DNA from: an uncultured Fibrobacterales bacterium
GTDB lineage: Bacteria; Fibrobacterota; Fibrobacteria; Fibrobacterales; CAWVXU01
Reading direction: 5' to 3'
Assembly (NCBI GenBank): GCA_963934255.1
Contig: CAWVXU010000069.1
Location: forward strand, 1-14,085
Length of the DNA stretch: 14,085 bases
Position 1 is the stretch's first letter, and the number at the start of each line of letters is the position of its first letter. A program made the position numbers and the translations under genes. Below, one piece after another: positions 2,591 to 13,713 of this stretch. Under the pieces are notes generated by a model. It did not search any database. It was not told the origin of the DNA and saw only the letters and a list, made by a program, of their open reading frames with translations.

Positions 2591-3442
2591 ATGCAAGAGT
2601 TGAGTTATAAAGTTGCTAAGTCACAATTTTTTCAAAATTTTGTAACATTTGCCATTATTGTAGCAGGTTTGTTGGTAGGTATTTCAACTTACCACGATTT
2701 CTACCTGAAGCATCAAGGTCTATTGGATACACTCAATCTAATAGTCCTGATTATATTCATCATAGAGATTGCAGTGAAAATTGCAGCAGAAGGTAAAAAG
2801 CCATGGCTTTACTTTACTAAAGCATGGAATATATTCGACTTCGTTATTGTCACAGCAGCCTTCTTACCATTTGGCGGAAGCTCAATTGCAATCCTCAGGT
2901 TACTCAGGCTTCTTAGGGTACTTAAGCTCATCAAGGCGCTTCCTAAACTTCAAGTATTAGTGAGTGCGCTACTCAAAAGTATCCCTTCTATGGGGTATGT
3001 GAGCATTTTGCTTCTATTGCTCTTTTACATCTACGCAGTGGCTGCTGTTTTCTTCTTTGGAGAAAATGATCCTATCCATTTCAAGGATCTACAAACTTCT
3101 ATGCTATCGATGTTTAGAGTAGTGACTTTAGAGGATTGGACGGATGTGATGTATATCAATATGTTCGGTTGTGAGAGCTATGGATATGGTGGCTTTGAGG
3201 AATTCTGTACAGCGTCCAAATCAAATCCATTATTTAGTGCTCTATTTTTCGTTTCATTTGTTCTTGTGGGGACGATGATCTTCTTAAATCTATTCATTGG
3301 TGTCATCATGAATGGTATGGACGAAGCTCGTAAAGAGATGGAAGAGTCACAAGTGACTGAAGGTGGACAAGAGCATATTGTGCTTATTGAGAAAAAGATG
3401 GAAGAGCTTCTAGTCCTTTTGGCTGCGCTTAAAAACAAATAA
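2591..3442 (+). CDS. Bacterial voltage-gated sodium/calcium channel (BacNav-type 6TM ion transporter)
   Basis: Six hydrophobic segments, S3 WNIFDF, S4 voltage sensor ILRLLRLLRVLKLIK, pore loop FRVVTLEDWTDVMY, S6 LNLFIGVI, and a C-terminal coiled coil. SD GAGG lies upstream. Confidence 0.93.
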   Translation: MQELSYKVAKSQFFQNFVTFAIIVAGLLVGISTYHDFYLKHQGLLDTLNLIVLIIFIIEIAVKIAAEGKKPWLYFTKAWNIFDFVIVTAAFLPFGGSSIAILRLLRLLRVLKLIKALPKLQVLVSALLKSIPSMGYVSILLLLLFYIYAVAAVFFFGENDPIHFKDLQTSMLSMFRVVTLEDWTDVMYINMFGCESYGYGGFEEFCTASKSNPLFSALFFVSFVLVGTMIFLNLFIGVIMNGMDEARKEMEESQVTEGGQEHIVLIEKKMEELLVLLAALKNK

Positions 3443-3525: not shown

Positions 3526-3945
3526 ATGATCATCATAAACAATAGAATAAAGCTACTAGACTCTGATGTTCAGATTTCAGCCACTACCTCACAAGGGCCA
3601 GGCGGTCAAAACGTCAACAAGGTAGCCACAGCTATTCAGCTGAGATTTGATATTCCCAATTCAAGTTTACATGCCATCTATAAGAGCCGATTACTCAAAG
3701 CAAGTGACCAGAGACTCACTCAAGATGGCGTCCTGATCATCAAGGCTCAAAACCACCGATCTCAAGAAAAAAACAAATTTGAAGCCATCAGTAGGCTCAG
3801 AGATTTTTTTACCGATACCCTTCATGTTCCTAAGCACCGCAAAGAGACCAAGCCCACAATAAATTCTCAAAAAAAACGCGTAGATACCAAGCAAAGACGA
3901 GGCCAAACCAAATCACTCAGACAAAAGCCACGCCGGGACGATTAA
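3526..3945 (+). CDS. arfB: Alternative ribosome rescue peptidyl-tRNA hydrolase ArfB (YaeJ)
   Basis: SQGPGGQNVNKVATA GGQ motif, RSQEKNK, and a basic C-terminal tail PKHRKETKPT...KQRRGQTKSLR. 139 aa. Confidence 0.95.
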   Translation: MIIINNRIKLLDSDVQISATTSQGPGGQNVNKVATAIQLRFDIPNSSLHAIYKSRLLKASDQRLTQDGVLIIKAQNHRSQEKNKFEAISRLRDFFTDTLHVPKHRKETKPTINSQKKRVDTKQRRGQTKSLRQKPRRDD

Positions 3946-4447: not shown

Positions 4448-5674
4448 TTACTTTAAGTTAGCATTTAAACTATCAAGCATTGGTTGACTACCGTCAGGCA
4501 TTTTATCTTGAGTGATTTCCCAAATAAGCACACCGTTTAAGTTCTTCTCGCTCACATAGCGGGCTTTAATAGCGATCGACTGAGGGTTTTCAAATCCAAG
4601 CTCACCTTTGACACTATTTATAGTATAAGTTGCGTAGGGTACTTTCGCTTGATCATCCCACATCATTTTAAGATCTTTTTCCTTTTCCATAATCTCATTA
4701 TATGAGGGTGCACCACCATCAGACCAGGTAGCTGTATCGGCTTGTTTAGGCCCAGACCAGGAACGGCCATAGAAAGCCAGTCCCATATTCATTTTCTCTT
4801 TAGGCACTCCGGCTTTCAACCACAAGTCCACACAAGCCGAAGCCGAACCCATATCTTTAGCATCTTTTCCATAAAGAGGGGAGTTCAAGCCAAATCTTTC
4901 TTCCCACGGACCGTGAAGGTCATAGGCCATCAGGTTAAATACATCAAGATTTTTCACTAATGCCGGTATATCATAACCTTGGCCAAGTCTCCAACCACTG
5001 CAAGGGACAGCTGCTGTGAGGCCTGATTTTTTACCCGTTTTCTTATTGTAGGCATCGATGGCAACTCGAAGTGCGGATGTCAATTTCACAAAGTTTACTT
5101 TATCAACCGAAGAGGCAAGTTTTGGAACATGGCCATCTGTTCCTGGGTATTCCCAATCAAGGTCAATTCCATCAAATCCATGTACACTCATTAATTTGAT
5201 CGCTTGATTGACAAAAACTTTGGTCTTAGCCGGACTCTTAGCAATACCGTAAAAATTCTTAGTTAAAGTCCATCCCCCCACAGATGCATAGACTTTTACG
5301 CCATTTTTATGCGCAATGGAGATGAGAGATTCTTTTTCAGCACCTTTTGCGTGAGTTGTGCACTGGGTGGTGACTTTATCTTCAGCGTTTATATTAGTTA
5401 GGCATTTCTTTTGGCCGGTTTGAGAGGTCGGTCCATATATTAGGATGTTGTCTATAGCGGCGACACCTTGAATACCCCCTGTGACATGTAATTTACCATC
5501 AGGCCCCGGAGCATAAAAGGAATAATCCAATTGGGTTATCATGTCCCATGCGACATCAGTTGGACTGTAGTGGTGAGCTTTCCAAGTGGGATAGTACCCG
5601 ACAATGTGTTTTTTTGCCCAAACAGCAGAGTATAATAAGCTGACAAGAAGGACTGCAATAATTTTTTTATTCAT
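4448..5674 (-). CDS. Secreted glycoside hydrolase family 18 chitinase
   Basis: Signal peptide MNKKIIAVLLVSLLYSAVWA. Motifs IVGYY, SVGGW, catalytic FDGIDLDWEYP, NLMAYDLHG, MGLAFYGR, WDDQAKVPY, GVLIWEITQD. Confidence 0.95.
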   Translation of the reverse strand: MNKKIIAVLLVSLLYSAVWAKKHIVGYYPTWKAHHYSPTDVAWDMITQLDYSFYAPGPDGKLHVTGGIQGVAAIDNILIYGPTSQTGQKKCLTNINAEDKVTTQCTTHAKGAEKESLISIAHKNGVKVYASVGGWTLTKNFYGIAKSPAKTKVFVNQAIKLMSVHGFDGIDLDWEYPGTDGHVPKLASSVDKVNFVKLTSALRVAIDAYNKKTGKKSGLTAAVPCSGWRLGQGYDIPALVKNLDVFNLMAYDLHGPWEERFGLNSPLYGKDAKDMGSASACVDLWLKAGVPKEKMNMGLAFYGRSWSGPKQADTATWSDGGAPSYNEIMEKEKDLKMMWDDQAKVPYATYTINSVKGELGFENPQSIAIKARYVSEKNLNGVLIWEITQDKMPDGSQPMLDSLNANLK

Positions 5675-5815
5675 TTAACACTCTTATTTAAATTCAAGGA
5701 TTGATGATTGATAAGAAAAAAGTGCCTGAGGACTAATTTTTTCAGTTGAATTTGTTAATTCAGGTCCATATTTTACAAATAATTGCATTTTTGTCCAAAT
5801 TACTTGATTTCTCCA

Positions 5816-5843
5816 TTGACACTAAAATTTGCTTTCTTAAATT
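5816..5843 (+). promoter_or_regulatory. Putative sigma70 promoter of the leader-act operon
   Basis: Perfect -35 TTGACA (5816-5821), 16-nt spacer, -10-like TAAATT (5838-5843), with AT-rich sequence upstream. Confidence 0.55.
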
Positions 5844-5872
5844 TATAGCGTCTGTTGAGAAGGGATATAATT

Positions 5873-6046
5873 ATGCGCATTTCTACAAACCAAGTATGTT
5901 TTTTTGAATCTTCGCATTTTTGTACCCAGGTTCAAAACGAATTTACCAATGTGTTTTTTACCCAATTTCAAAACGAATTTACCGATATGTTTTGTACCCA
6001 ATTTCAAAACGAAACCGATATGACAAACGCCCTTCAGCTATGCTGA
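5873..6046 (+). CDS. Putative Phe/Cys-rich repetitive leader peptide (57 aa) upstream of actA
   Basis: SD-like GAAGGGA (5859-5865) then ATG 5873: MRISTNQVCFFESSHFCTQVQNEFTNVFFTQFQNEFTDMFCTQFQNETDMTNALQLC*. Repeat units (36, 36, 33 nt) are multiples of 3. The stop codon lies in the terminator stem. Confidence 0.55.
   Translation: MRISTNQVCFFESSHFCTQVQNEFTNVFFTQFQNEFTDMFCTQFQNETDMTNALQLC
5918..6022 (+). repeat. Three tandem 36/36/33-nt direct repeats
   Basis: TTTTGTACCCAGGTTCAAAACGAATTTACCAATGTG / TTTTTTACCCAATTTCAAAACGAATTTACCGATATG / TTTTGTACCCAATTTCAAAACGAA---ACCGATATG. Confidence 0.95.
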
Positions 6047-6061
6047 GGGCGTTTTTTGTTT
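6025..6061 (+). terminator. Intrinsic terminator (attenuator-like) in the act operon leader
   Basis: Stem AAACGCCCT(T)CAGC-TAT-GCTGAGGGCGTTT running into TTTTTTGTTT, about 32 nt upstream of the actA ATG. Confidence 0.85.
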
Positions 6062-6093
6062 GATATGAACTAATTCGACCCAAAAGGACCGAT

Positions 6094-6663
6094 ATGAATA
6101 AGGAATGGCTAGACAATGCCTTAAAAGTAAGGCTGCCGATCATTTTAGTGGTTGTGCTCGTGACATACGTGCTCACCTTTTACATTTCAGCACCCGAAAG
6201 GACGAACATTGGTAATCAGCCAGTGCAGCCGATTCCTTTCTCTCATAAGTTGCATGCGGGTACTATGGAGATAGACTGTAAATACTGTCACGTGGGAGCC
6301 GAAAAGGGCCGTCACGCTGTAGTTCCCTCTGTTAATATTTGTATGAACTGTCACAAGCATGTGAAAACAGATTCACCACACATCAAAAAACTCACTAAAC
6401 ACTACGAAACAGGTGAGCCTGTTCCATGGAAGCGCATCTATCGGGTGCCAGAGTATGTTTACTTTGATCACTCTGTTCATGTGGCAAAAGGCTTCGACTG
6501 TTCTCAGTGTCACGGTGACGTGGCTGCTATGGATACGGTCTATCAAGCCCGTCGAGTAACTATGGGCCGATGTATTAACTGCCATAGAGGCGCTCATGAT
6601 GAGCAAACTGGTATCACTGCGGACGATAAAGGTCCAACAAACTGTTCTGTTTGTCACCGTTAA
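6094..6663 (+). CDS. actA: Alternative complex III pentaheme cytochrome c subunit ActA
   Basis: One N-terminal TM helix, QPVQPIPFSHKLHAG, five CxxCH motifs (CKYCH, CMNCH, CSQCH, CINCH, CSVCH), PEYVYFDHSVH. SD AAGGA. Confidence 0.93.
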   Translation: MNKEWLDNALKVRLPIILVVVLVTYVLTFYISAPERTNIGNQPVQPIPFSHKLHAGTMEIDCKYCHVGAEKGRHAVVPSVNICMNCHKHVKTDSPHIKKLTKHYETGEPVPWKRIYRVPEYVYFDHSVHVAKGFDCSQCHGDVAAMDTVYQARRVTMGRCINCHRGAHDEQTGITADDKGPTNCSVCHR

Positions 6664-6672
6664 GGAATAAAG

Positions 6673-9600
6673 ATGGATAAGAAATTAGAACAAGAACCAA
6701 ACTATTGGAGAAGCTTTGAAGAATTGCACGATAGCAATTCGTTTGCCAAAGCAACACAAAGTGAGTTTTCACAAGAAGCAACAGAGGCGCCAGTTCTAGC
6801 AGAAATGGCTCCTGTTGACCGTCGTAAATTCCTAGGTCTTATGGCCGCTGGTGCTGCACTTGCAGGCACGGGATGTTATAATTACCAAGACGGAGGTGAA
6901 GTACTTCCCTATAACAAAATGAACGAGCGCACTATTCCAGGTGTTGCTACTTATTTTGCTTCTACTATTCAATCAAATGGTGCGTCGCACGGTGTATTGG
7001 TTAAGTCCCGCATTGGTCGTCCTATTAAAGTCGATGGTAACCCTGAACACCCTGTGAACAAAGGCAAAGTTCCGGCTCAAGTACAAGTATCAATTGCTTC
7101 ACTTTATGATCCAGAGCGTTTGACACAACCCACTCACAAGGGTGAAGATATTAATTGGGAAACTTCTCTTAAGAAGCTTGCTGATAATTTAGAAGCAGCA
7201 GCTGATGAAGATAAAGACATAGTTCTTTATACCAATTCAGTTCTTTCTCCTTCTAAAGCTAAGCTTTTGAAAAAGATTAAAGAAAAATACCCAACTACAA
7301 AAATCATTTCTGCAGAACTTCACGATGAAGAATACATTACCAAAGCTTGGAAACAACTTTATGGTGTTGAGCAAGTACCAAGTATGTCTTGGGGCAAAGC
7401 TCGCGTGATTGTCGCTCTTGAAAATGACCTTTTACATTCAGAATCACACATGCATGAGCAACGCGCGTTTGGCAACAACCGTGAAGTCAAACGTGGTGAG
7501 AAAATCAACCGTTTGTACTCTGTAGAAGGTGACTTCTCAGTTACAGGTGGAGCATCTGATATTCGTCTTCGCCTTAACCCAACTTTACAACAAGCTTTCC
7601 TTCAAGCATTGCTAACTACTCTAGTTAAAGAACAAAATTTAGGGCAAGGTGTTGTCACTCGAGAGATTACAGCGTTGCTCAACGGACCAACTCTTGCTCA
7701 GTTTGCTGAGGCTCAAGGTTGGGATAAAAGTGTCGTTGAAGTTCTTGTAAAAGATCTTGTTCACTTCAGGCAGAGTTCTGTCATTGCAGCAGGGCCAAAG
7801 CTTTCGGAGAATGTTCAAATTCTTTCGCTTGCAATTAACCAAGTACTTGGTTCTACTAAGCTCTATAAGTTAGCCTCAGTTTCTACACCTTTGATCCCTC
7901 TTTCATCTCGTGAAGACATCATAAAAGTAGTAGCTCAAATGGCAGCTGGAAAAGTGGGAGTTGTTCTTCATTTAGAATCGAACCCTGTATTCCATTTACC
8001 TGTGGAACTAGATTATGCCAAAGCACTTGAAAGTGTAGATTATGTAGCGACTTTCTCGACGATCAAGTCTGAGACAGTGGCCAAATCTCACTCGGTTTTT
8101 GCAATCAATCATGCACTTGAATCATGGAATGATTTCTCAGACAAGCCTGGTGTATACTCGATTCAACAGCCTATGATCGCACCACTTTACAAGACTCGTC
8201 AATTAGAAGACATTTTACTAGCTCTTGGTGGACGTAAATTCCAAATTGGTGGCTATCGCAAATTTGTTAAAAACACTGCAGTAAATAATATCAGAAAAGA
8301 AATGGGTAGCATTCTACCTAGGACTCTCTTTTGGCAAACAACTGTCCATGATGGGTTTGTTCTCACTCCCAAATCTGAACTTCCTGCTTTAAATATTAAT
8401 TCTGAATCACTTGCTAAATCCTTGAAAAAACTTCCTAAGCCAGCTAATGGTTTTAATCCAGCTAATGGTTTAACCGTTATTTTCAAACGGGCCAGCGCAA
8501 TTGGTGATGGATCACTAGCTAACATCGGTTGGCTACAAGAGCTTGCAAACCCTATCTCCAAAATTACTTGGGATAACTACGCTGCTATGTCTCCAGCAAC
8601 CCTCAAGGAGCATGGATTCAAACAATACCCTAAATCAGGTGATGATTTCTACGAAATGATCAATATTAAAGTTGATGGTCGTCGAATTCAACTACCAGTT
8701 TATGCTCAAGCGGGCATGGCTGATGATGTTATCTCAATTGAACTTGGTTATGGTGAAACTGAAGTAGGCGTCATCGCTGAAGGTGTTGGTGCTAATGCAC
8801 AAAAGCTAATGGCTTGGGGCGGATCATTCGGCGCTTATATCATTGATGGTGTTAAAGCAACTTCAGCTGATGAATTCCAAAAACTAGCTTCGACTCAAGA
8901 ACACTATGCAATTGATGTTGCATCAATTCCTGAGCCAACTCCACTAGCTGAGCTGATTAAAGATGCTCACTTAACTCGTGGTGTTATTAAAGAAGGCACA
9001 CTTAAAGAGTATAAAGACAATCCTAGCTTTGTCAAAGACAAGTCACATATCCCCACTTATTCAATGGACCGCCCCCATAAATACGAGGGTGTGAAATGGG
9101 CTATGGTAGTTGACCAGAACAAATGTACTGGTTGTTCAGAGTGTGTGATTTCATGTAATGTCGAAAACAACATCCCAGTTGTAGGTAAAGCTGAAGTCCT
9201 TAAAGGACGTGAGATGCATTGGATGCGTATTGATCGTTATTACTCAGGTACTCCTGAGGAACCTCTTATGTCTACCCAGCCGATGCTTTGTCAACAATGT
9301 GATAATGCTCCTTGTGAAAACGTTTGTCCTGTAGTTGCTACAACTCACAGTCCAGAGGGTATTAATGAGATGACTTATAACCGTTGTGTTGGTACTCGTT
9401 ACTGCGCCAATAACTGTCCATACAAGGTTCGTCGTTTCAACTTCTATAACTTCCGTCTACAACTTGCAGATGGTTATCAAGAGAAACCAGCATTCTCACT
9501 TCTTCATAACCCAGAAGTCAGTGTTCGCTCTCGCGGTGTGATGGAAAAGTGTAATTTCTGTATCCAAAGAATTAATACAGCTAGAGCAGATTCTAAACGC

Positions 9601-9837
9601 GACAAACAAGAGTGGACCGGTCAAGGTGTTACTGTTGCTTGTCAAGATGCATGTTCTACTAACGCAATCTACTTCGGAAATATCAATGATAAAAATTCTG
9701 CAGTAGCCAAATTTAGTGCACATGAGCTTGGTTATAAAGTTCTTGAAGAGACGGCTGTTCGTCCTAATGTAACTTACGTTGCTAAAGTTCGTAACAACCA
9801 TCAGAAACCTGAAAAATCTGAAGGGAAAACTCATTAA
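6673..9837 (+). CDS. actB: Alternative complex III subunit ActB (molybdopterin-oxidoreductase-like domain fused to an Fe-S domain)
   Basis: YWRSFEEL and Tat motif DRRKFLG followed by a lipobox-like Cys (LAGTGC). GRPIKVDGNPEHP. Fe-S motifs CTGCSECVISC, CQQCDNAPCENVCP, CVGTRYCANNCPY, EKCNFC...ACQDAC. Confidence 0.95.
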   Translation: MDKKLEQEPNYWRSFEELHDSNSFAKATQSEFSQEATEAPVLAEMAPVDRRKFLGLMAAGAALAGTGCYNYQDGGEVLPYNKMNERTIPGVATYFASTIQSNGASHGVLVKSRIGRPIKVDGNPEHPVNKGKVPAQVQVSIASLYDPERLTQPTHKGEDINWETSLKKLADNLEAAADEDKDIVLYTNSVLSPSKAKLLKKIKEKYPTTKIISAELHDEEYITKAWKQLYGVEQVPSMSWGKARVIVALENDLLHSESHMHEQRAFGNNREVKRGEKINRLYSVEGDFSVTGGASDIRLRLNPTLQQAFLQALLTTLVKEQNLGQGVVTREITALLNGPTLAQFAEAQGWDKSVVEVLVKDLVHFRQSSVIAAGPKLSENVQILSLAINQVLGSTKLYKLASVSTPLIPLSSREDIIKVVAQMAAGKVGVVLHLESNPVFHLPVELDYAKALESVDYVATFSTIKSETVAKSHSVFAINHALESWNDFSDKPGVYSIQQPMIAPLYKTRQLEDILLALGGRKFQIGGYRKFVKNTAVNNIRKEMGSILPRTLFWQTTVHDGFVLTPKSELPALNINSESLAKSLKKLPKPANGFNPANGLTVIFKRASAIGDGSLANIGWLQELANPISKITWDNYAAMSPATLKEHGFKQYPKSGDDFYEMINIKVDGRRIQLPVYAQAGMADDVISIELGYGETEVGVIAEGVGANAQKLMAWGGSFGAYIIDGVKATSADEFQKLASTQEHYAIDVASIPEPTPLAELIKDAHLTRGVIKEGTLKEYKDNPSFVKDKSHIPTYSMDRPHKYEGVKWAMVVDQNKCTGCSECVISCNVENNIPVVGKAEVLKGREMHWMRIDRYYSGTPEEPLMSTQPMLCQQCDNAPCENVCPVVATTHSPEGINEMTYNRCVGTRYCANNCPYKVRRFNFYNFRLQLADGYQEKPAFSLLHNPEVSVRSRGVMEKCNFCIQRINTARADSKRDKQEWTGQGVTVACQDACSTNAIYFGNINDKNSAVAKFSAHELGYKVLEETAVRPNVTYVAKVRNNHQKPEKSEGKTH
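8440..8472 (+). repeat. In-frame tandem duplication (18-nt period) within actB
   Basis: CCAGCTAATGGTTTTAAT followed by CCAGCTAATGGTTTA, encoding PANGFN-PANGL. Confidence 0.8.
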
Positions 9838-11222
9838 TGTCTGAGAATATCCAATATTCTAAACCTCTCGAGCTTGTTGAAGGCAAAGATGGGTTCAAGG
9901 AGCTAGACGATTGTATCGCTGCTCCAGTGGAAAACACGATACCACCACTTAAATGGTGGATTGCATTCTTGATGGGACCGATAACTCTCCTATCATTCGG
10001 TGCAGTAGGTGTTTTCTTAACACTCAAAAATGGTACAGGCGAATGGGGTAATAATAACCCTGCAGGCTGGGCATTTCCAATTGTGAATTTCGTATTTTGG
10101 ATTGGTATTGGTCATGCTGGTACTCTGATTTCAGCTGTGCTATTCCTGTTGCGTCAGCAATGGCGAACAGCGATTGCACGATTTGCAGAAGCGATGACAA
10201 TTTTTGCGGTAATCACTGCGATGATTTTCCCCATCCTTCACACAGGTCGTCCTTGGCTTGCTCACTACCTTCTTCCTTATCCAAATGAACGTAATTTGTG
10301 GGTGAATTTTACTTCGCCTCTTGTATGGGATGTATTTGCAGTATCAACTTATGGTGCAGTTTCGATTATCTTCTGGTACGTAGGTCTGATTCCTGACTTT
10401 GCTATCATGCGTGATCGTACTAAAACGGGCCTTCGCAAATTAATCTACTCATTATTCTCACTAGGCTGGCGCGGATCAAACCGTCATTGGCAACACTATG
10501 AGAAATGCTACATGATTCTTGCGGGTATTGCTACACCACTTGTATTCTCTGTACATACAATTGTATCATTTGACTTTGCTACCTCTGTTATCCCTGGATG
10601 GCACACCACGATTTTCCCTCCATACTTTGTTGCAGGAGCGATCTTCTCTGGTTTTGCTGCGGTTGAGACAGCACTTCTTTTCTTACGTGTCTATTTCAAA
10701 ATGGAACACATCGTTACCATGAATCACCTCGAGCGCATGAATAAAATCATCATGATGACAGGTATGATGGTAGGTTATGCATATGCTATGGAATTCTTTA
10801 TCGCATGGTATGGTGGTAACCCGAACGAGCAGTTCGTATTTATAAACAGGGCAATGGGACCGTATGCTTGGGCATACTGGACAATGGTATCCTGTAATGT
10901 GATATTCCCACAAGTCTTCTGGTTCCGTCAGTGTCGTAGAAACATCCCACTCATGTTCGTCATCACTATTATCGTAAATATCGGTATGTGGTTTGAGCGT
11001 TTTGTTATTGTAATTACATCATTACATCGTGACTATCTACCCTCAAGTTGGGATTATTTTACCCCGACGTATGTTGACTTTTTCTTATTAATGGGATCTT
11101 TTGGTCTATTCACGACTCTAGTATTTCTTTTCGTACGAGTTCTTCCTGCAATAGCTGTTGCAGAGATTAAAGCCGTCGTTACCGGAGCTCAACCTTCCCA
11201 CCACGCTGAAGGAGAACACTAA
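9837..11222 (+). CDS. actC: Alternative complex III quinol-binding membrane subunit ActC (NrfD/PsrC family)
   Basis: NFVFWIGIGHAGTLISA, RFAEAMT, HTGRPW, NFTSPLVWDVFAV, SVHTIVSFDFA, WFERFVI. TAATG overlap with actB. Confidence 0.95.
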   Translation: MSENIQYSKPLELVEGKDGFKELDDCIAAPVENTIPPLKWWIAFLMGPITLLSFGAVGVFLTLKNGTGEWGNNNPAGWAFPIVNFVFWIGIGHAGTLISAVLFLLRQQWRTAIARFAEAMTIFAVITAMIFPILHTGRPWLAHYLLPYPNERNLWVNFTSPLVWDVFAVSTYGAVSIIFWYVGLIPDFAIMRDRTKTGLRKLIYSLFSLGWRGSNRHWQHYEKCYMILAGIATPLVFSVHTIVSFDFATSVIPGWHTTIFPPYFVAGAIFSGFAAVETALLFLRVYFKMEHIVTMNHLERMNKIIMMTGMMVGYAYAMEFFIAWYGGNPNEQFVFINRAMGPYAWAYWTMVSCNVIFPQVFWFRQCRRNIPLMFVITIIVNIGMWFERFVIVITSLHRDYLPSSWDYFTPTYVDFFLLMGSFGLFTTLVFLFVRVLPAIAVAEIKAVVTGAQPSHHAEGEH

Positions 11223-12493
11223 TGAATACTGAAAAAAAACTATACGGTGTAACAGCCTTATTCGATTCTCCTGACGATATTATGGCCGCAGCCGCAAAAG
11301 TACGCGACCAGAAATTTGAAAATTGGGATGTCAATACTCCTTACCCAGTTCATGGTATGGACGATGCAATGGGTATCCCACCTTCTAAATTAGGTTGGGT
11401 CACTATCGCCATGGCTATTTGGGGAGCGTCTTTTGCAATGTTCTTCATGTACATGATTATGACTCATATTTATCCACTAAACATTGGTGGTAAGCCTTTC
11501 TTCTCTCTCCCTGCTTTTGTGCCTATCACATTTGCATTCTCAGTTCTTAATGCCGTGATTGGTACTGTTGCTGCGATGCTTTTTTTCTTTTGCAAGCTTC
11601 CTTTCAATAACCATGCGCTTCATGATACATCATATATGTCTTCTGTTATTTCAAACCGTTTTGGGATTGAAATCCAAGCCAACAATAAGGGTTTTGATCT
11701 CGAAAAGGTAAAAGCGTTCTTGACTTCTATTGGTGGTAAAGAAATCACTGAACAATATGAGTGTGAAGTCAAACCTCTTGTTATTTCCTTACCTGGCGGA
11801 CGAGTGTTCCGTTGGAACGAAGGTTGGTTTGCCCTAATTTTAGTGATGGTTGCTCTTGGCGTGGGTGTTAAATTTTACGCAATATACAATCAGGTCTTGT
11901 ATGACCGAATCCCTTTTATTCACGTAGATGATCCGATTTCTGGCCTGTCTATTAACAAGATTGCTGGTGTAGAAGTTCCTATAGGTCCATTTACATGGCT
12001 CAGGGTTCAAGACAAAGAAAAATATGGAAGGACATCTAAGTTTTTTAAAGATGGACAATCCATGCGCGAGTCAGTTGGAGGGACAATTGCGAGAGGGTTC
12101 ATGCCTTACCAATTTAAAGGAAAACCTGCCCTTGCTGAAAAACACCTGACCAACCCACTTCCCATGGTCAAAAAAATAATGGATCGCGGTAGGGATGTAT
12201 ATAATACTAACTGTTCAATCTGTCATGGAGACTTTGGAGATGGTGATGGACGCGTCAAAAATTGGTCTGATAAAAAGGATCCAGGTGCTAGAAAGTATTT
12301 TGCGCCTCCTTCATTACATTCTGAAAAACTTACGCAAGCTGGAGATGGACTTATCTATCACATTATTACTGATGGACAGAATGTCATGCCTGCATATGCG
12401 AAGCAAATCACTCGTGAAGATCGTTGGAAAGTTGTTCATTACATACGCGCTCTCCAAAGGGCCAAAAATGCAAAGGATTCGGACTTAAAATGA
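11222..12493 (+). CDS. actDE: Fused ActD (DUF3341)-ActE (monoheme cytochrome c)
   Basis: N-terminal ActD motifs TPYPVHGMDDAMG and GGKPFFSLPAFVPITF, then an extra TM helix. ActE-like C-terminus: FFKDGQSMR..VGGTIARG, CSICHG, IITDGQNVMPAY, DRWKVVHYIRALQ. One continuous frame. Confidence 0.9.
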   Translation: MNTEKKLYGVTALFDSPDDIMAAAAKVRDQKFENWDVNTPYPVHGMDDAMGIPPSKLGWVTIAMAIWGASFAMFFMYMIMTHIYPLNIGGKPFFSLPAFVPITFAFSVLNAVIGTVAAMLFFFCKLPFNNHALHDTSYMSSVISNRFGIEIQANNKGFDLEKVKAFLTSIGGKEITEQYECEVKPLVISLPGGRVFRWNEGWFALILVMVALGVGVKFYAIYNQVLYDRIPFIHVDDPISGLSINKIAGVEVPIGPFTWLRVQDKEKYGRTSKFFKDGQSMRESVGGTIARGFMPYQFKGKPALAEKHLTNPLPMVKKIMDRGRDVYNTNCSICHGDFGDGDGRVKNWSDKKDPGARKYFAPPSLHSEKLTQAGDGLIYHIITDGQNVMPAYAKQITREDRWKVVHYIRALQRAKNAKDSDLK

Positions 12494-13713
12494 GTACTTT
12501 AGACTATACAAAAAAAGAATTGCCTAAAGGCATGATGACTATTGGGTCAATCCTACTTGCAGTAGGAATTGCCATGATAGCTGGTAACTTTTTTATGGAT
12601 ACTTCAGATCATCACAGCCGTTTTTGGTTGTTATACATCGTTATGTTTGTATCCCTAACCTCTGTTGCACTAGGAGCTATTTTTATTGTAGCCCTAGAAC
12701 ACTTGGCTGGCGCATATTGGTCAGTACCTAATAGACGTATTGTTGAGATATTGTCGTGGCTTTTCCCTGTTCTTATGATCCTGGGTTTGCCACTTCTGAC
12801 GCAAATGGATAGTATTTTCCATTGGACTCATCCTGGTGATGACCAATTGATTTTGCATAAAATAGCTTACCTCAACAAACCTTTCTTCGTCGTTCGTTAT
12901 TTCTTGTTTTTCTTTATTTGGATTGCCTTCACTTGGATGTTCCATCGAAACTCTGTCAAACAAGAAACGACTAAAGATCCTGCAATTACTACGACTAACT
13001 CTCGTTTAGCTGCTATTTTTATGGTCTTTTTTGGACTCACGCTTTCTTTCTTTGTGATTGATTGGGCTATGTCTCTTGAGCCTCATTGGTTTTCAACGAT
13101 GTTTGGTATTTACTATTTTTCTGGTACAATTACGGTTGGCTTTTCTGTGATGGCTTTATTCTACATTCACTTGAAAAACAAAGGTGTGCTTCACCCTAGA
13201 CTAGGTAAAGATCATCTCTACCCAATCGCTAATTTCATGTTTGCTTTTGCCATGTTCTGGACCTATATAGGATTTTGTCAGTACATGTTGATTTGGTATG
13301 CTGGAATGCCCGAAGAAACAATGTTCTTCGTTCCTCGTTGGGAAGGCGCTTGGAAAACTATGGCTATCGTTTTAATGATTGCAAAGTTCCCAATTCCGTT
13401 TGTGATTCTTGTCGGTCGTTATAACAAAACACGTGAGTGGGTTGTTAAAATCATGGCTTACTGGTTAATTATTTGGCACGTTATTGATATGTATTGGAAT
13501 ATTATGCCATCTCTTAAAGATCACTCAGTTAAAGTGGACCACCTTCTACAAGCTGAACCTGCCGTCGCATTTTCTTTCAATATAACTGATCTAGGGTTTC
13601 TAATCTTTGGATTTGGTCTTGTGATGGTCGTATTCTATCTTAAAGGTCGCAAAGGTAACATGGTTCCAATTGGTGATCCAAAACTTGAACACGGTTTGCA
13701 TTGGCACGCCTAA
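12490..13713 (+). CDS. actF: Alternative complex III membrane subunit ActF
   Basis: ATG 12490 overlaps the actDE TGA (ATGA). Motifs HKIAYLNKPFF, DWAMSLEPHWFSTMFG, FWTYIGFCQYMLIWYAGMPEET, PIGDP. About 10 TM segments. Confidence 0.93.
   Translation: MSTLDYTKKELPKGMMTIGSILLAVGIAMIAGNFFMDTSDHHSRFWLLYIVMFVSLTSVALGAIFIVALEHLAGAYWSVPNRRIVEILSWLFPVLMILGLPLLTQMDSIFHWTHPGDDQLILHKIAYLNKPFFVVRYFLFFFIWIAFTWMFHRNSVKQETTKDPAITTTNSRLAAIFMVFFGLTLSFFVIDWAMSLEPHWFSTMFGIYYFSGTITVGFSVMALFYIHLKNKGVLHPRLGKDHLYPIANFMFAFAMFWTYIGFCQYMLIWYAGMPEETMFFVPRWEGAWKTMAIVLMIAKFPIPFVILVGRYNKTREWVVKIMAYWLIIWHVIDMYWNIMPSLKDHSVKVDHLLQAEPAVAFSFNITDLGFLIFGFGLVMVVFYLKGRKGNMVPIGDPKLEHGLHWHA

Follow-up and report, generated by a model that had tools for sequence, protein, structure and literature searches.

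A candidate translation-coupled attenuator in the leader of an alternative complex III operon from a marine Fibrobacterales bacterium

Introduction

In Escherichia coli, the leader open reading frame (ORF) pyrL runs into the intrinsic terminator located upstream from pyrBI, and coupling of translation to transcription is described as preventing formation of the hairpin, an antiterminator being unnecessary (PMC5021804, PMC4824070). According to the account given in PMC4824070, repression of an E. coli terminator is nearly complete when only a few bases separate it from a stop codon; terminators in the initial 100 nt of a coding region escape repression, whereas those further in are repressed. 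Both pyrL and mgtM are presented as unconserved leader peptides acting by coupling (PMC5021804, PMC4824070, PMC3641672). For Salmonella mgtM, the leader of mgtCBR, PMC3641672 describes an unconserved peptide together with conserved A residues, and NTP-dependent pausing is proposed there to set coupling. In the trp, phe, and his attenuators, the short leader ORF ends at a distance of over 20 nt upstream from the terminator.

We analyzed a leader located upstream from an alternative complex III (ACIII) operon in a 14,085-nt stretch of DNA, referred to below as the window, from an uncultured Fibrobacterales bacterium. As in pyrL-pyrBI, an ORF overlaps a terminator upstream from structural genes, and no antiterminator was found in the act leader. 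The dimensions differ: pyrL has 44 codons, a stem beginning 89 nt after the AUG (NC_000913), and a frame that extends through the terminator in full and ends 3 nt short of pyrB, whereas the act leader has 57 codons, a stem beginning 155 nt after the AUG, and a stop codon located in the 3' arm of the hairpin, 47 nt before the actA start. Unlike pyrL-pyrBI, the act leader contains tandem repeats, has no strong pause hairpin, and precedes a respiratory rather than a pyrimidine operon. The likeness to mgtM resides in an unconserved peptide combined with a preserved A-rich core, although mgtM uses alternative stem-loops and the act leader ORF directly overlaps an intrinsic terminator. The trp, phe, and his attenuators also combine a short ORF with a terminator and can be Phe-rich, but the act stop codon lies inside the terminator, no antiterminator is present, the candidate control codons are unconserved, and the score of the act leader with the Rfam Phe_leader family was 21 bits for a cut-off of 55. 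Finally, toxIN type III loci share the succession of promoter, 36-nt tandem repeats, terminator, and downstream gene; the act locus differs from them by the lack of a toxin gene or a predicted pseudoknot, and its repeats lie in an ORF preceded by a Shine-Dalgarno (SD) sequence. The act leader is not an attenuator of the trp, phe, or his type, a type III locus, or a member of an Rfam family, and the pause-hairpin and UTP features of pyrBI are absent. By analogy, it would work like pyrL-pyrBI. A literature search covering papers outside subscription found none on attenuation of ACIII operons.

Results

Organization of the locus

The host genome (2.67 Mb, 38.6% GC, 92% complete) was detected in marine runs. 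Pfam matches (Cytochrome_C7, Fer4, NrfD, and ActD plus cytochrome c) indicate that the ACIII operon is genuine (Table 1). The preliminary description of this DNA had placed a promoter, an SD-led ORF, and a hairpin overlapping the ORF end upstream from actA, and all of these elements were recovered. The promoter has a predicted start at about position 5850, the ORF contains ten Phe codons, all UUU, and four Cys codons, and the hairpin (-18.8 kcal/mol) is followed by U6-G-U3. The UGA (6044-6046) is within the 3' arm, and the next gene is actA, heading actB, actC, and actD-actE.

Table 1. Features of the act locus and of its leader in the window.
Feature	Coordinates	Strand	Basis or remark
GH18 chitinase-like gene, divergent neighbor	4448..5674	-	Silent and divergence control
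Sigma70-type promoter TTGACA-16-TAAATT	5816..5843 (TAAATT 5838-5843)	+	10/12 consensus
SD-like AAGGGA	5860..5865	+	7 nt before first AUG of transcript
Leader ORF, 57 codons	5873..6046	+	Same frame and length in variants, unconserved peptide, putatively translated
36-nt tandem repeat, 3 copies	5918..6022	+	TRF score 157, x2.7
Repeat copies	5918-5953, 5954-5989, 5990-6022 (third with 3-nt deletion)	+	
Intrinsic terminator-like hairpin (6025-6054) and U-tract (6052-6061)	6025..6061	+	Holds last codons and UGA of the ORF
actA SD AAGGA	6084..6088	+	Sequence, duplex energy
actA, multiheme cytochrome c	6094..6663	+	Pfam Cytochrome_C7
actB, Fe-S subunit	6673..9837	+	Pfam Fer4 families, size, position
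actC, NrfD-type membrane subunit	9837..11222	+	PF03916
actD-actE fusion	11222..12493	+	PF11821 and cytochrome c domain
actF-like membrane subunit	12490..13713	+	Position only; no Pfam match

Several other features of the region were recorded. An Ion_trans voltage-gated ion-channel-like gene (2591-3442) and an ArfB-like RF-1 domain gene (3526-3945) are located upstream in the window. The spacer between the chitinase gene and the leader contains short inverted repeats (5747-5762 and 5654-5664/5777-5787) close to the promoter-like site of the chitinase gene (5797-5770, minus strand), and these may be recognized by regulators of the divergent pair. In actB, a tandemly duplicated 18-nt stretch (8436-8471) is polymorphic since one copy was missing in RNA run X8 (18-nt in-frame deletion). 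The cox genes of the host (G000:C30:21756-27305) are separate from the act operon. They share just 32-40% identity with their counterparts in G001 (L120, G001:C14), a genome in which sco-cox-act form one operon, the identity reaching 68% for ActA. As judged from these values, one set of oxidase genes may have undergone replacement.

Transcription of the leader

Promoter-like sites were no commoner in the window than expected by chance (32 versus 31.8 in shuffled sequences). RNA contigs were obtained from four of five available runs, corresponding to four studies: X8 (5850-5940, 5852-5940, and 5911-6149), X15 (6021-6297), X17 (5862-6019, 16 differences), and X19 (5862-6013, 14 differences, adapter at 5862). 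Leader RNA was present in three of the four runs, with left ends at 5850 to 5862 in three studies, and the two X8 contigs beginning at 5850 and 5852 match the predicted start. Contigs spanning the U-tract into actA were found in two of the four runs (X8, 5911-6149; X15, 6021-6297), such contigs giving neither strand, true ends, levels, nor proof of a single transcript and possibly reflecting DNA contamination. Genuine RNA cover of the chitinase gene and spacer (4900-5849) was absent in all four runs, the only 34-nt piece originating from an unrelated contig. Most simply, these data would be read as a single transcription unit whose leader includes a terminator.

The preliminary description missed a second promoter-like site, TTTATA-18-TATAAT (5842-5871). 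RNA initiated from the TATAAT (5866-5871) could start just inside the ORF, without its AUG. The leader contigs of X17 and X19, from two studies, share the left end 5862, which is the first G of the SD sequence, the X19 contig carrying an adapter at this position. The shared end would correspond either to a different start site or to a processed end in the variant; RNase J, a possible cause of such common ends, was not found in the host genome (92% complete). Contig depth, higher for the leader than for the act pieces in X17 and X19, was set aside because depth cannot rank genes.

The leader ORF

AAGGG was found upstream from 3.7% of the genes, versus 0.3% for the background. The duplex energy of the leader SD (-5.4) equals that of actA and is reached by 6.8% of intergenic ATGs, the host 16S anti-SD lying outside the assembly. 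Under a loose definition, SD-ATG ORFs reach intergenic hairpins that are not at gene ends in 10 of 122 cases in the genome, the leader ORF included, so that this ORF alone is not beyond chance. The codon-likeness of the leader ORF falls in the lowest 4% of the windows taken from real genes. The ORF contains 21.8% C and 13.2% G. The exclusive use of UUU is weak evidence: UUU accounts for 73% of the Phe codons genome-wide, and eight of the ten leader Phe codons lie inside a repeat.

Protein searches with the leader peptide returned only near-identical variants. Two further proteins, both long and repetitive, came from a profile search (P0025 and P0026, the latter unrelated), and an unrelated 295-residue protein (P0027) clustered with P0002. 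The best ESM Atlas match to the peptide (0.89) is a lead only. No relatives were found for an ORF antisense to the leader, and no second copy of the leader element was found elsewhere in the host genome.

A tandem repeat within the ORF

A 36-nt tandem repeat, also missed by the preliminary description, spans codons 16 to 50, i.e. 35 of the 57 codons. Each unit combines an invariant A-rich core with a U-run every 12 nt, hence a Phe at every fourth codon, and the repeat therefore accounts for most of the Phe pattern. The array is stop-free in all three plus-strand frames, and the other two frames are likewise Phe-rich. The hairpins formed by the repeats are weak (0 to -3.6 kcal/mol each), and no strong pause hairpin of the pyrBI type was found in the leader, the best repeat hairpin being the one at -3.6 kcal/mol.

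Comparison of variants revealed changes at unit positions 4, 5, 8, 12-14, 27, 31, and 34, with positions 12-14 changed in all three copies and the A-rich core (15-24) unchanged, these counts being small and the copies possibly converting one another. This pattern hints at A-run pausing or a protein-binding motif rather than at U-run pausing. The proposal that UTP would be sensed at the U-runs found no specific support, as the U content of the leader is 35% versus 32% for intergenic DNA and several U positions of the repeat vary.

The ends of repeats 2 and 3 (5981-5990 and 6014-6023) match the actA start context (6088-6097) over 9 to 10 nt, and an in-frame AUG or GUG closes each unit. On the basis of this similarity, the array may be derived from, or a mimic of, the actA initiation region.

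A protein binding the three motifs, in RNA or in DNA, might control termination or elongation, the ORF being incidental. This would fit the constant core and variable positions 12-14 in three motif copies and the near uniqueness of the arrangement since, among 24 intergenic TRF rows, a long array associated with a terminator occurs only here, besides one 23-nt doublet. However, no alternative structure joins the repeats to the terminator, a CAT_RBD antiterminator was absent from the genome (92% complete; positive control detected), and a single NusG is encoded. No ANTAR match was found either, the ANTAR control being silent as well. We regard control by such a protein as improbable, with a modest chance of being correct.

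The layout and the unit length also match those described for ToxI (PMC3401426), raising the possibility that a type III antitoxin array without its toxin, made up of a promoter, 36-nt repeats, and a terminator, was captured upstream from actA. The next gene is nonetheless the cytochrome gene actA rather than a toxin gene, no Rfam antitoxin match was obtained with E values up to 5, and the plasmids, phages, and viral contigs searched contained no match. A crude scan for two-stem pseudoknots detected at most two G-C pairs, and 191 of 300 shuffled sequences did at least as well. A ToxN search of the genome was performed with a control that remained silent. An origin as an antitoxin array is extremely unlikely.

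The terminator-like hairpin

The hairpin was the sole terminator-like element found by scanning the plus strand of the contig. The leader has a folding z score of -3.8, and the stop codon is located 19 nt inside the stem. No antiterminator was detected in the leader: pairing of the left arm with upstream sequences did not exceed 0.25 before the right arm exists, and the terminator pairs reached 0.99. An Rfam search of the leader returned five matches, none above the gathering score (best, 22.3 bits for cut-offs of 40 to 100).

The variants provided information on the hairpin at two pairs, deduced from protein sequences. At residues 56-57, P0001 has Leu-Cys, P0028 has Phe-Cys, and P0003 has Phe-Tyr, which implies a C to U change at 6038 followed by a G to A change at 6042. 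The loop-closing pair 6038-6042 would thus run C-G, U-G, and U-A across variants, with pairing kept. The replacement of Leu54 by Phe corresponds to a C to U change at 6032, still compatible with the partner G6047. The fixed position of the stop codon may follow from the hairpin alone.

Variation of the leader peptide and candidate control codons

Six variants of the leader peptide (P0001 to P0005 and P0028) were available from gene callers in close relatives. All six have 57 residues, with the proviso that a protein search can return only intact ORFs. P0003 differs from the leader peptide at 13 of 57 residues, for 3 of 189 in ActA and 20 of 408 in the chitinase (p = 2e-6), the three sequences presumably belonging to one 6,200-nt contig. 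The 18 listed substitutions of the leader RNA variants, read by hand, comprised 15 non-synonymous, 3 synonymous, and no stop changes; four of the 16 differences of X17 and three of the 14 of X19 are outside this list, and the listed changes of X17 agree with P0003 and P0028. Since 17.9% of synonymous changes are expected under neutrality, the pattern is near neutral, indicating that the leader peptide is unconstrained. The RNA variants contained no indels in the leader, U-runs included. The intact frame is not significant because 15 to 20 random changes would spare it about half of the time (P = 0.51-0.60 for no stop).

The preliminary description had suggested that the supply of Phe-tRNA or Cys-tRNA might be sensed through control codons. 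In favor of Phe, ten Phe residues are present in all six variants, only 8 of 931 intergenic ORFs of 40 to 99 codons are as Phe-rich, and UUU is the less favored codon in actB (UUU:UUC, 13:19) and actC (19:23). However, Phe and Cys positions are conserved no more than average: seven of the ten Phe positions are invariant, as are 39 of the 57 columns overall. Phe24 is encoded by UUC in the X19 RNA variant, two Phe residues were gained within the hairpin (codons 54 and 56), a location at which a stalled ribosome would act in the reverse sense, and the other two frames are Phe-rich too. Cys counts in the six variants were 4, 4, 2, 4, 4, and 3, the minimum of two being that of P0003, and only Cys41 is invariant. 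Sensing of either aminoacyl-tRNA is accordingly very unlikely.

An alternative in which the repeats arose by a recent duplication without selective value, the ORF is fortuitous, and actA has its own unrecognized promoter at about 6040-6085 would account for ORF statistics within chance, for the proportion of synonymous changes (3 of 18), and for the absence of the element from other ACIII loci (see below). The scan of the window revealed no promoter-like site between the hairpin and actA, and this alternative is also opposed by the contigs that cross the U-tract in two studies and by hairpin changes that preserve pairing. We consider it rather improbable, with a small residual chance.

Distribution of the element

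Beyond chance matches (best E value, 0.002 over 45 nt), no DNA homologues of the leader were found in 207 other genomes of the class, a tally that includes, as does that of the ActD family, the unpublished genome G171. Searches of viral contigs, plasmids, and phages returned no match, and an exact match to a 21-nt pattern in GTDB contigs (L001) is probably due to chance. In G001, the one other genome of the family, actA is located within the sco-cox-act operon after a 16-nt gap, without the leader. Closer ActA relatives (P0008 to P0013) have identities of 90-94%.

Among 110 actA-like loci, five with short upstream DNA were dropped and two were from the source organism. The remaining 103, of which 28 belong to a family without ActD, displayed a hairpin within 150 nt in three cases and the repeat in none. 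Within the phylum, 35 stretches were recovered from 45 other ActD-positive genomes, 29 of them containing actA. The repeat array was absent from all 29 loci, and a weaker hairpin, 150-310 nt upstream, was present in three. As judged from these comparisons, the element is a local invention limited to very close relatives rather than a general feature of ACIII operons.

Signatures of transcription-translation coupling in the host

A 12-nt stop-to-stem distance is said to have been used as a signature by Johnson et al. 2020. In runaway-transcription species, ribosome repression of terminators located near stop codons does not hold. A scan of the host genome detected 672 terminator-like hairpins. 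In a first version of the stop-to-stem analysis, 272 hairpins followed a gene and eight started at most 12 nt from the stop, but the controls were not distinguished in this way (E. coli, 2 of 16; a Priestia plasmid, 3 of 33). A second version was run per gene, within 60 nt, with the stem extended by A-U pairs and energy cut-offs of -7 kcal/mol for the controls (150 kb each) and -9 kcal/mol for the host genome. Gene-end terminators located at most 12 nt from the stop were then found in 10 of 219 cases for the host, 4 of 17 for E. coli, and 10 of 24 for the Priestia plasmid. The host median was 32 nt, and less than 5% of the distances were 12 nt or shorter, which points to coupling more strongly than the small E. 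coli sample does. The purine content of coding sequences, described as a second coupling signature (PMC13323073), was 51.6% for the host, 51.3% for E. coli, and 53.5% for the Priestia plasmid. From these two signatures, the host looks as if it couples transcription and translation. Its genome also encodes Rho. The scan additionally revealed two near-identical strong terminator-like hairpins in G000:C41 (about 19725 and 20754, plus strand), each located about 100 nt upstream from one of two paralogous AraC-like ORFs.

Because gene-end terminators avoid stop codons in the host, a ribosome translating the leader ORF should block the hairpin. Only three of the 219 gene ends have the stop codon inside their own terminator and, if the host is coupled as it appears to be, the position of the leader stop codon, 19 nt into the stem, does not correspond to an ordinary gene end. 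Either the leader ORF is untranslated or its translation suppresses termination.

The leader RNA could also be the product itself, i.e. a 210-nt small RNA or the message for a small protein with its own terminator, the act operon being fed by constant leakage. The leader has its own promoter and terminator, the variation of the repeat is position-specific, and a 10-nt stretch is common to the end of the third repeat and the start context of actA. The ends of the leader contigs from two studies just upstream from the hairpin (6013 and 6019) provide a weak hint in the same direction. On the other hand, ordinary small genes ending inside their terminator are rare in the host, the peptide drifts neutrally, in contrast to ActA, no Rfam family was identified, and supplying a respiratory operon past a constitutively strong terminator would presumably be expensive. 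This alternative is unlikely, although its chance of being correct is appreciable.

Discussion

We tentatively favor a pyrBI-like, translation-coupled attenuator of the ACIII operon, to which we assign somewhat less than an even chance, translation of the leader, termination in vivo, and regulation all being putative. The pyrBI-like logic put forward in the preliminary description agrees with the presence of leader RNA, the contigs extending into actA, the coupled-looking host, the lack of an antiterminator, and the conservation of the frame and hairpin in close variants. Its suggestion of Phe or Cys sensing found no support.

In the mechanism that we propose, RNA polymerase would start at about position 5850 and the ribosome would load at 5873, the 155 nt up to the stem leaving room for the ribosome to catch up. 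A ribosome keeping pace would cover the left arm, and the operon would be transcribed. If the ribosome lags, the hairpin would form and transcription would terminate, possibly with a contribution of Rho. An untranslated leader would also be open to Rho, because it is C-rich. In this model, the peptide as such would not matter, the position of the ribosome being decisive. The repeats would likely supply length and a pause sequence: a single copy would place the stem about 86 nt from the AUG, that is, inside the zone of about 100 nt before E. coli ribosomes catch up according to PMC4824070. The clustering of changes at unit positions 12-14 hints at a sequence motif, which pure spacing does not require. 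The signal would most likely be general translation capacity or an NTP-dependent pause, rather than Phe or Cys codons.

One form of this attenuation would link the leader to ATP: at low ATP, the polymerase would pause at the A-rich cores, the ribosome would catch up, the terminator would be blocked, and more ACIII would be produced. The polarity is opposite to that of mgtM, in which high ATP leads to read-through, and ATP sensing by the act leader is a guess that we regard as a long shot. If it were true, ATP would exert direct feedback on a respiratory operon, and a tandem duplication would have made the attenuator by pushing the terminator past the coupling distance.

The weight of these considerations is limited by the confinement of the element to one small marine lineage. 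If the attenuator is real, ribosome-coupled attenuation, known from operons for biosynthesis and transport, would also apply to a respiratory complex, and a short duplication would be the origin of such a switch.
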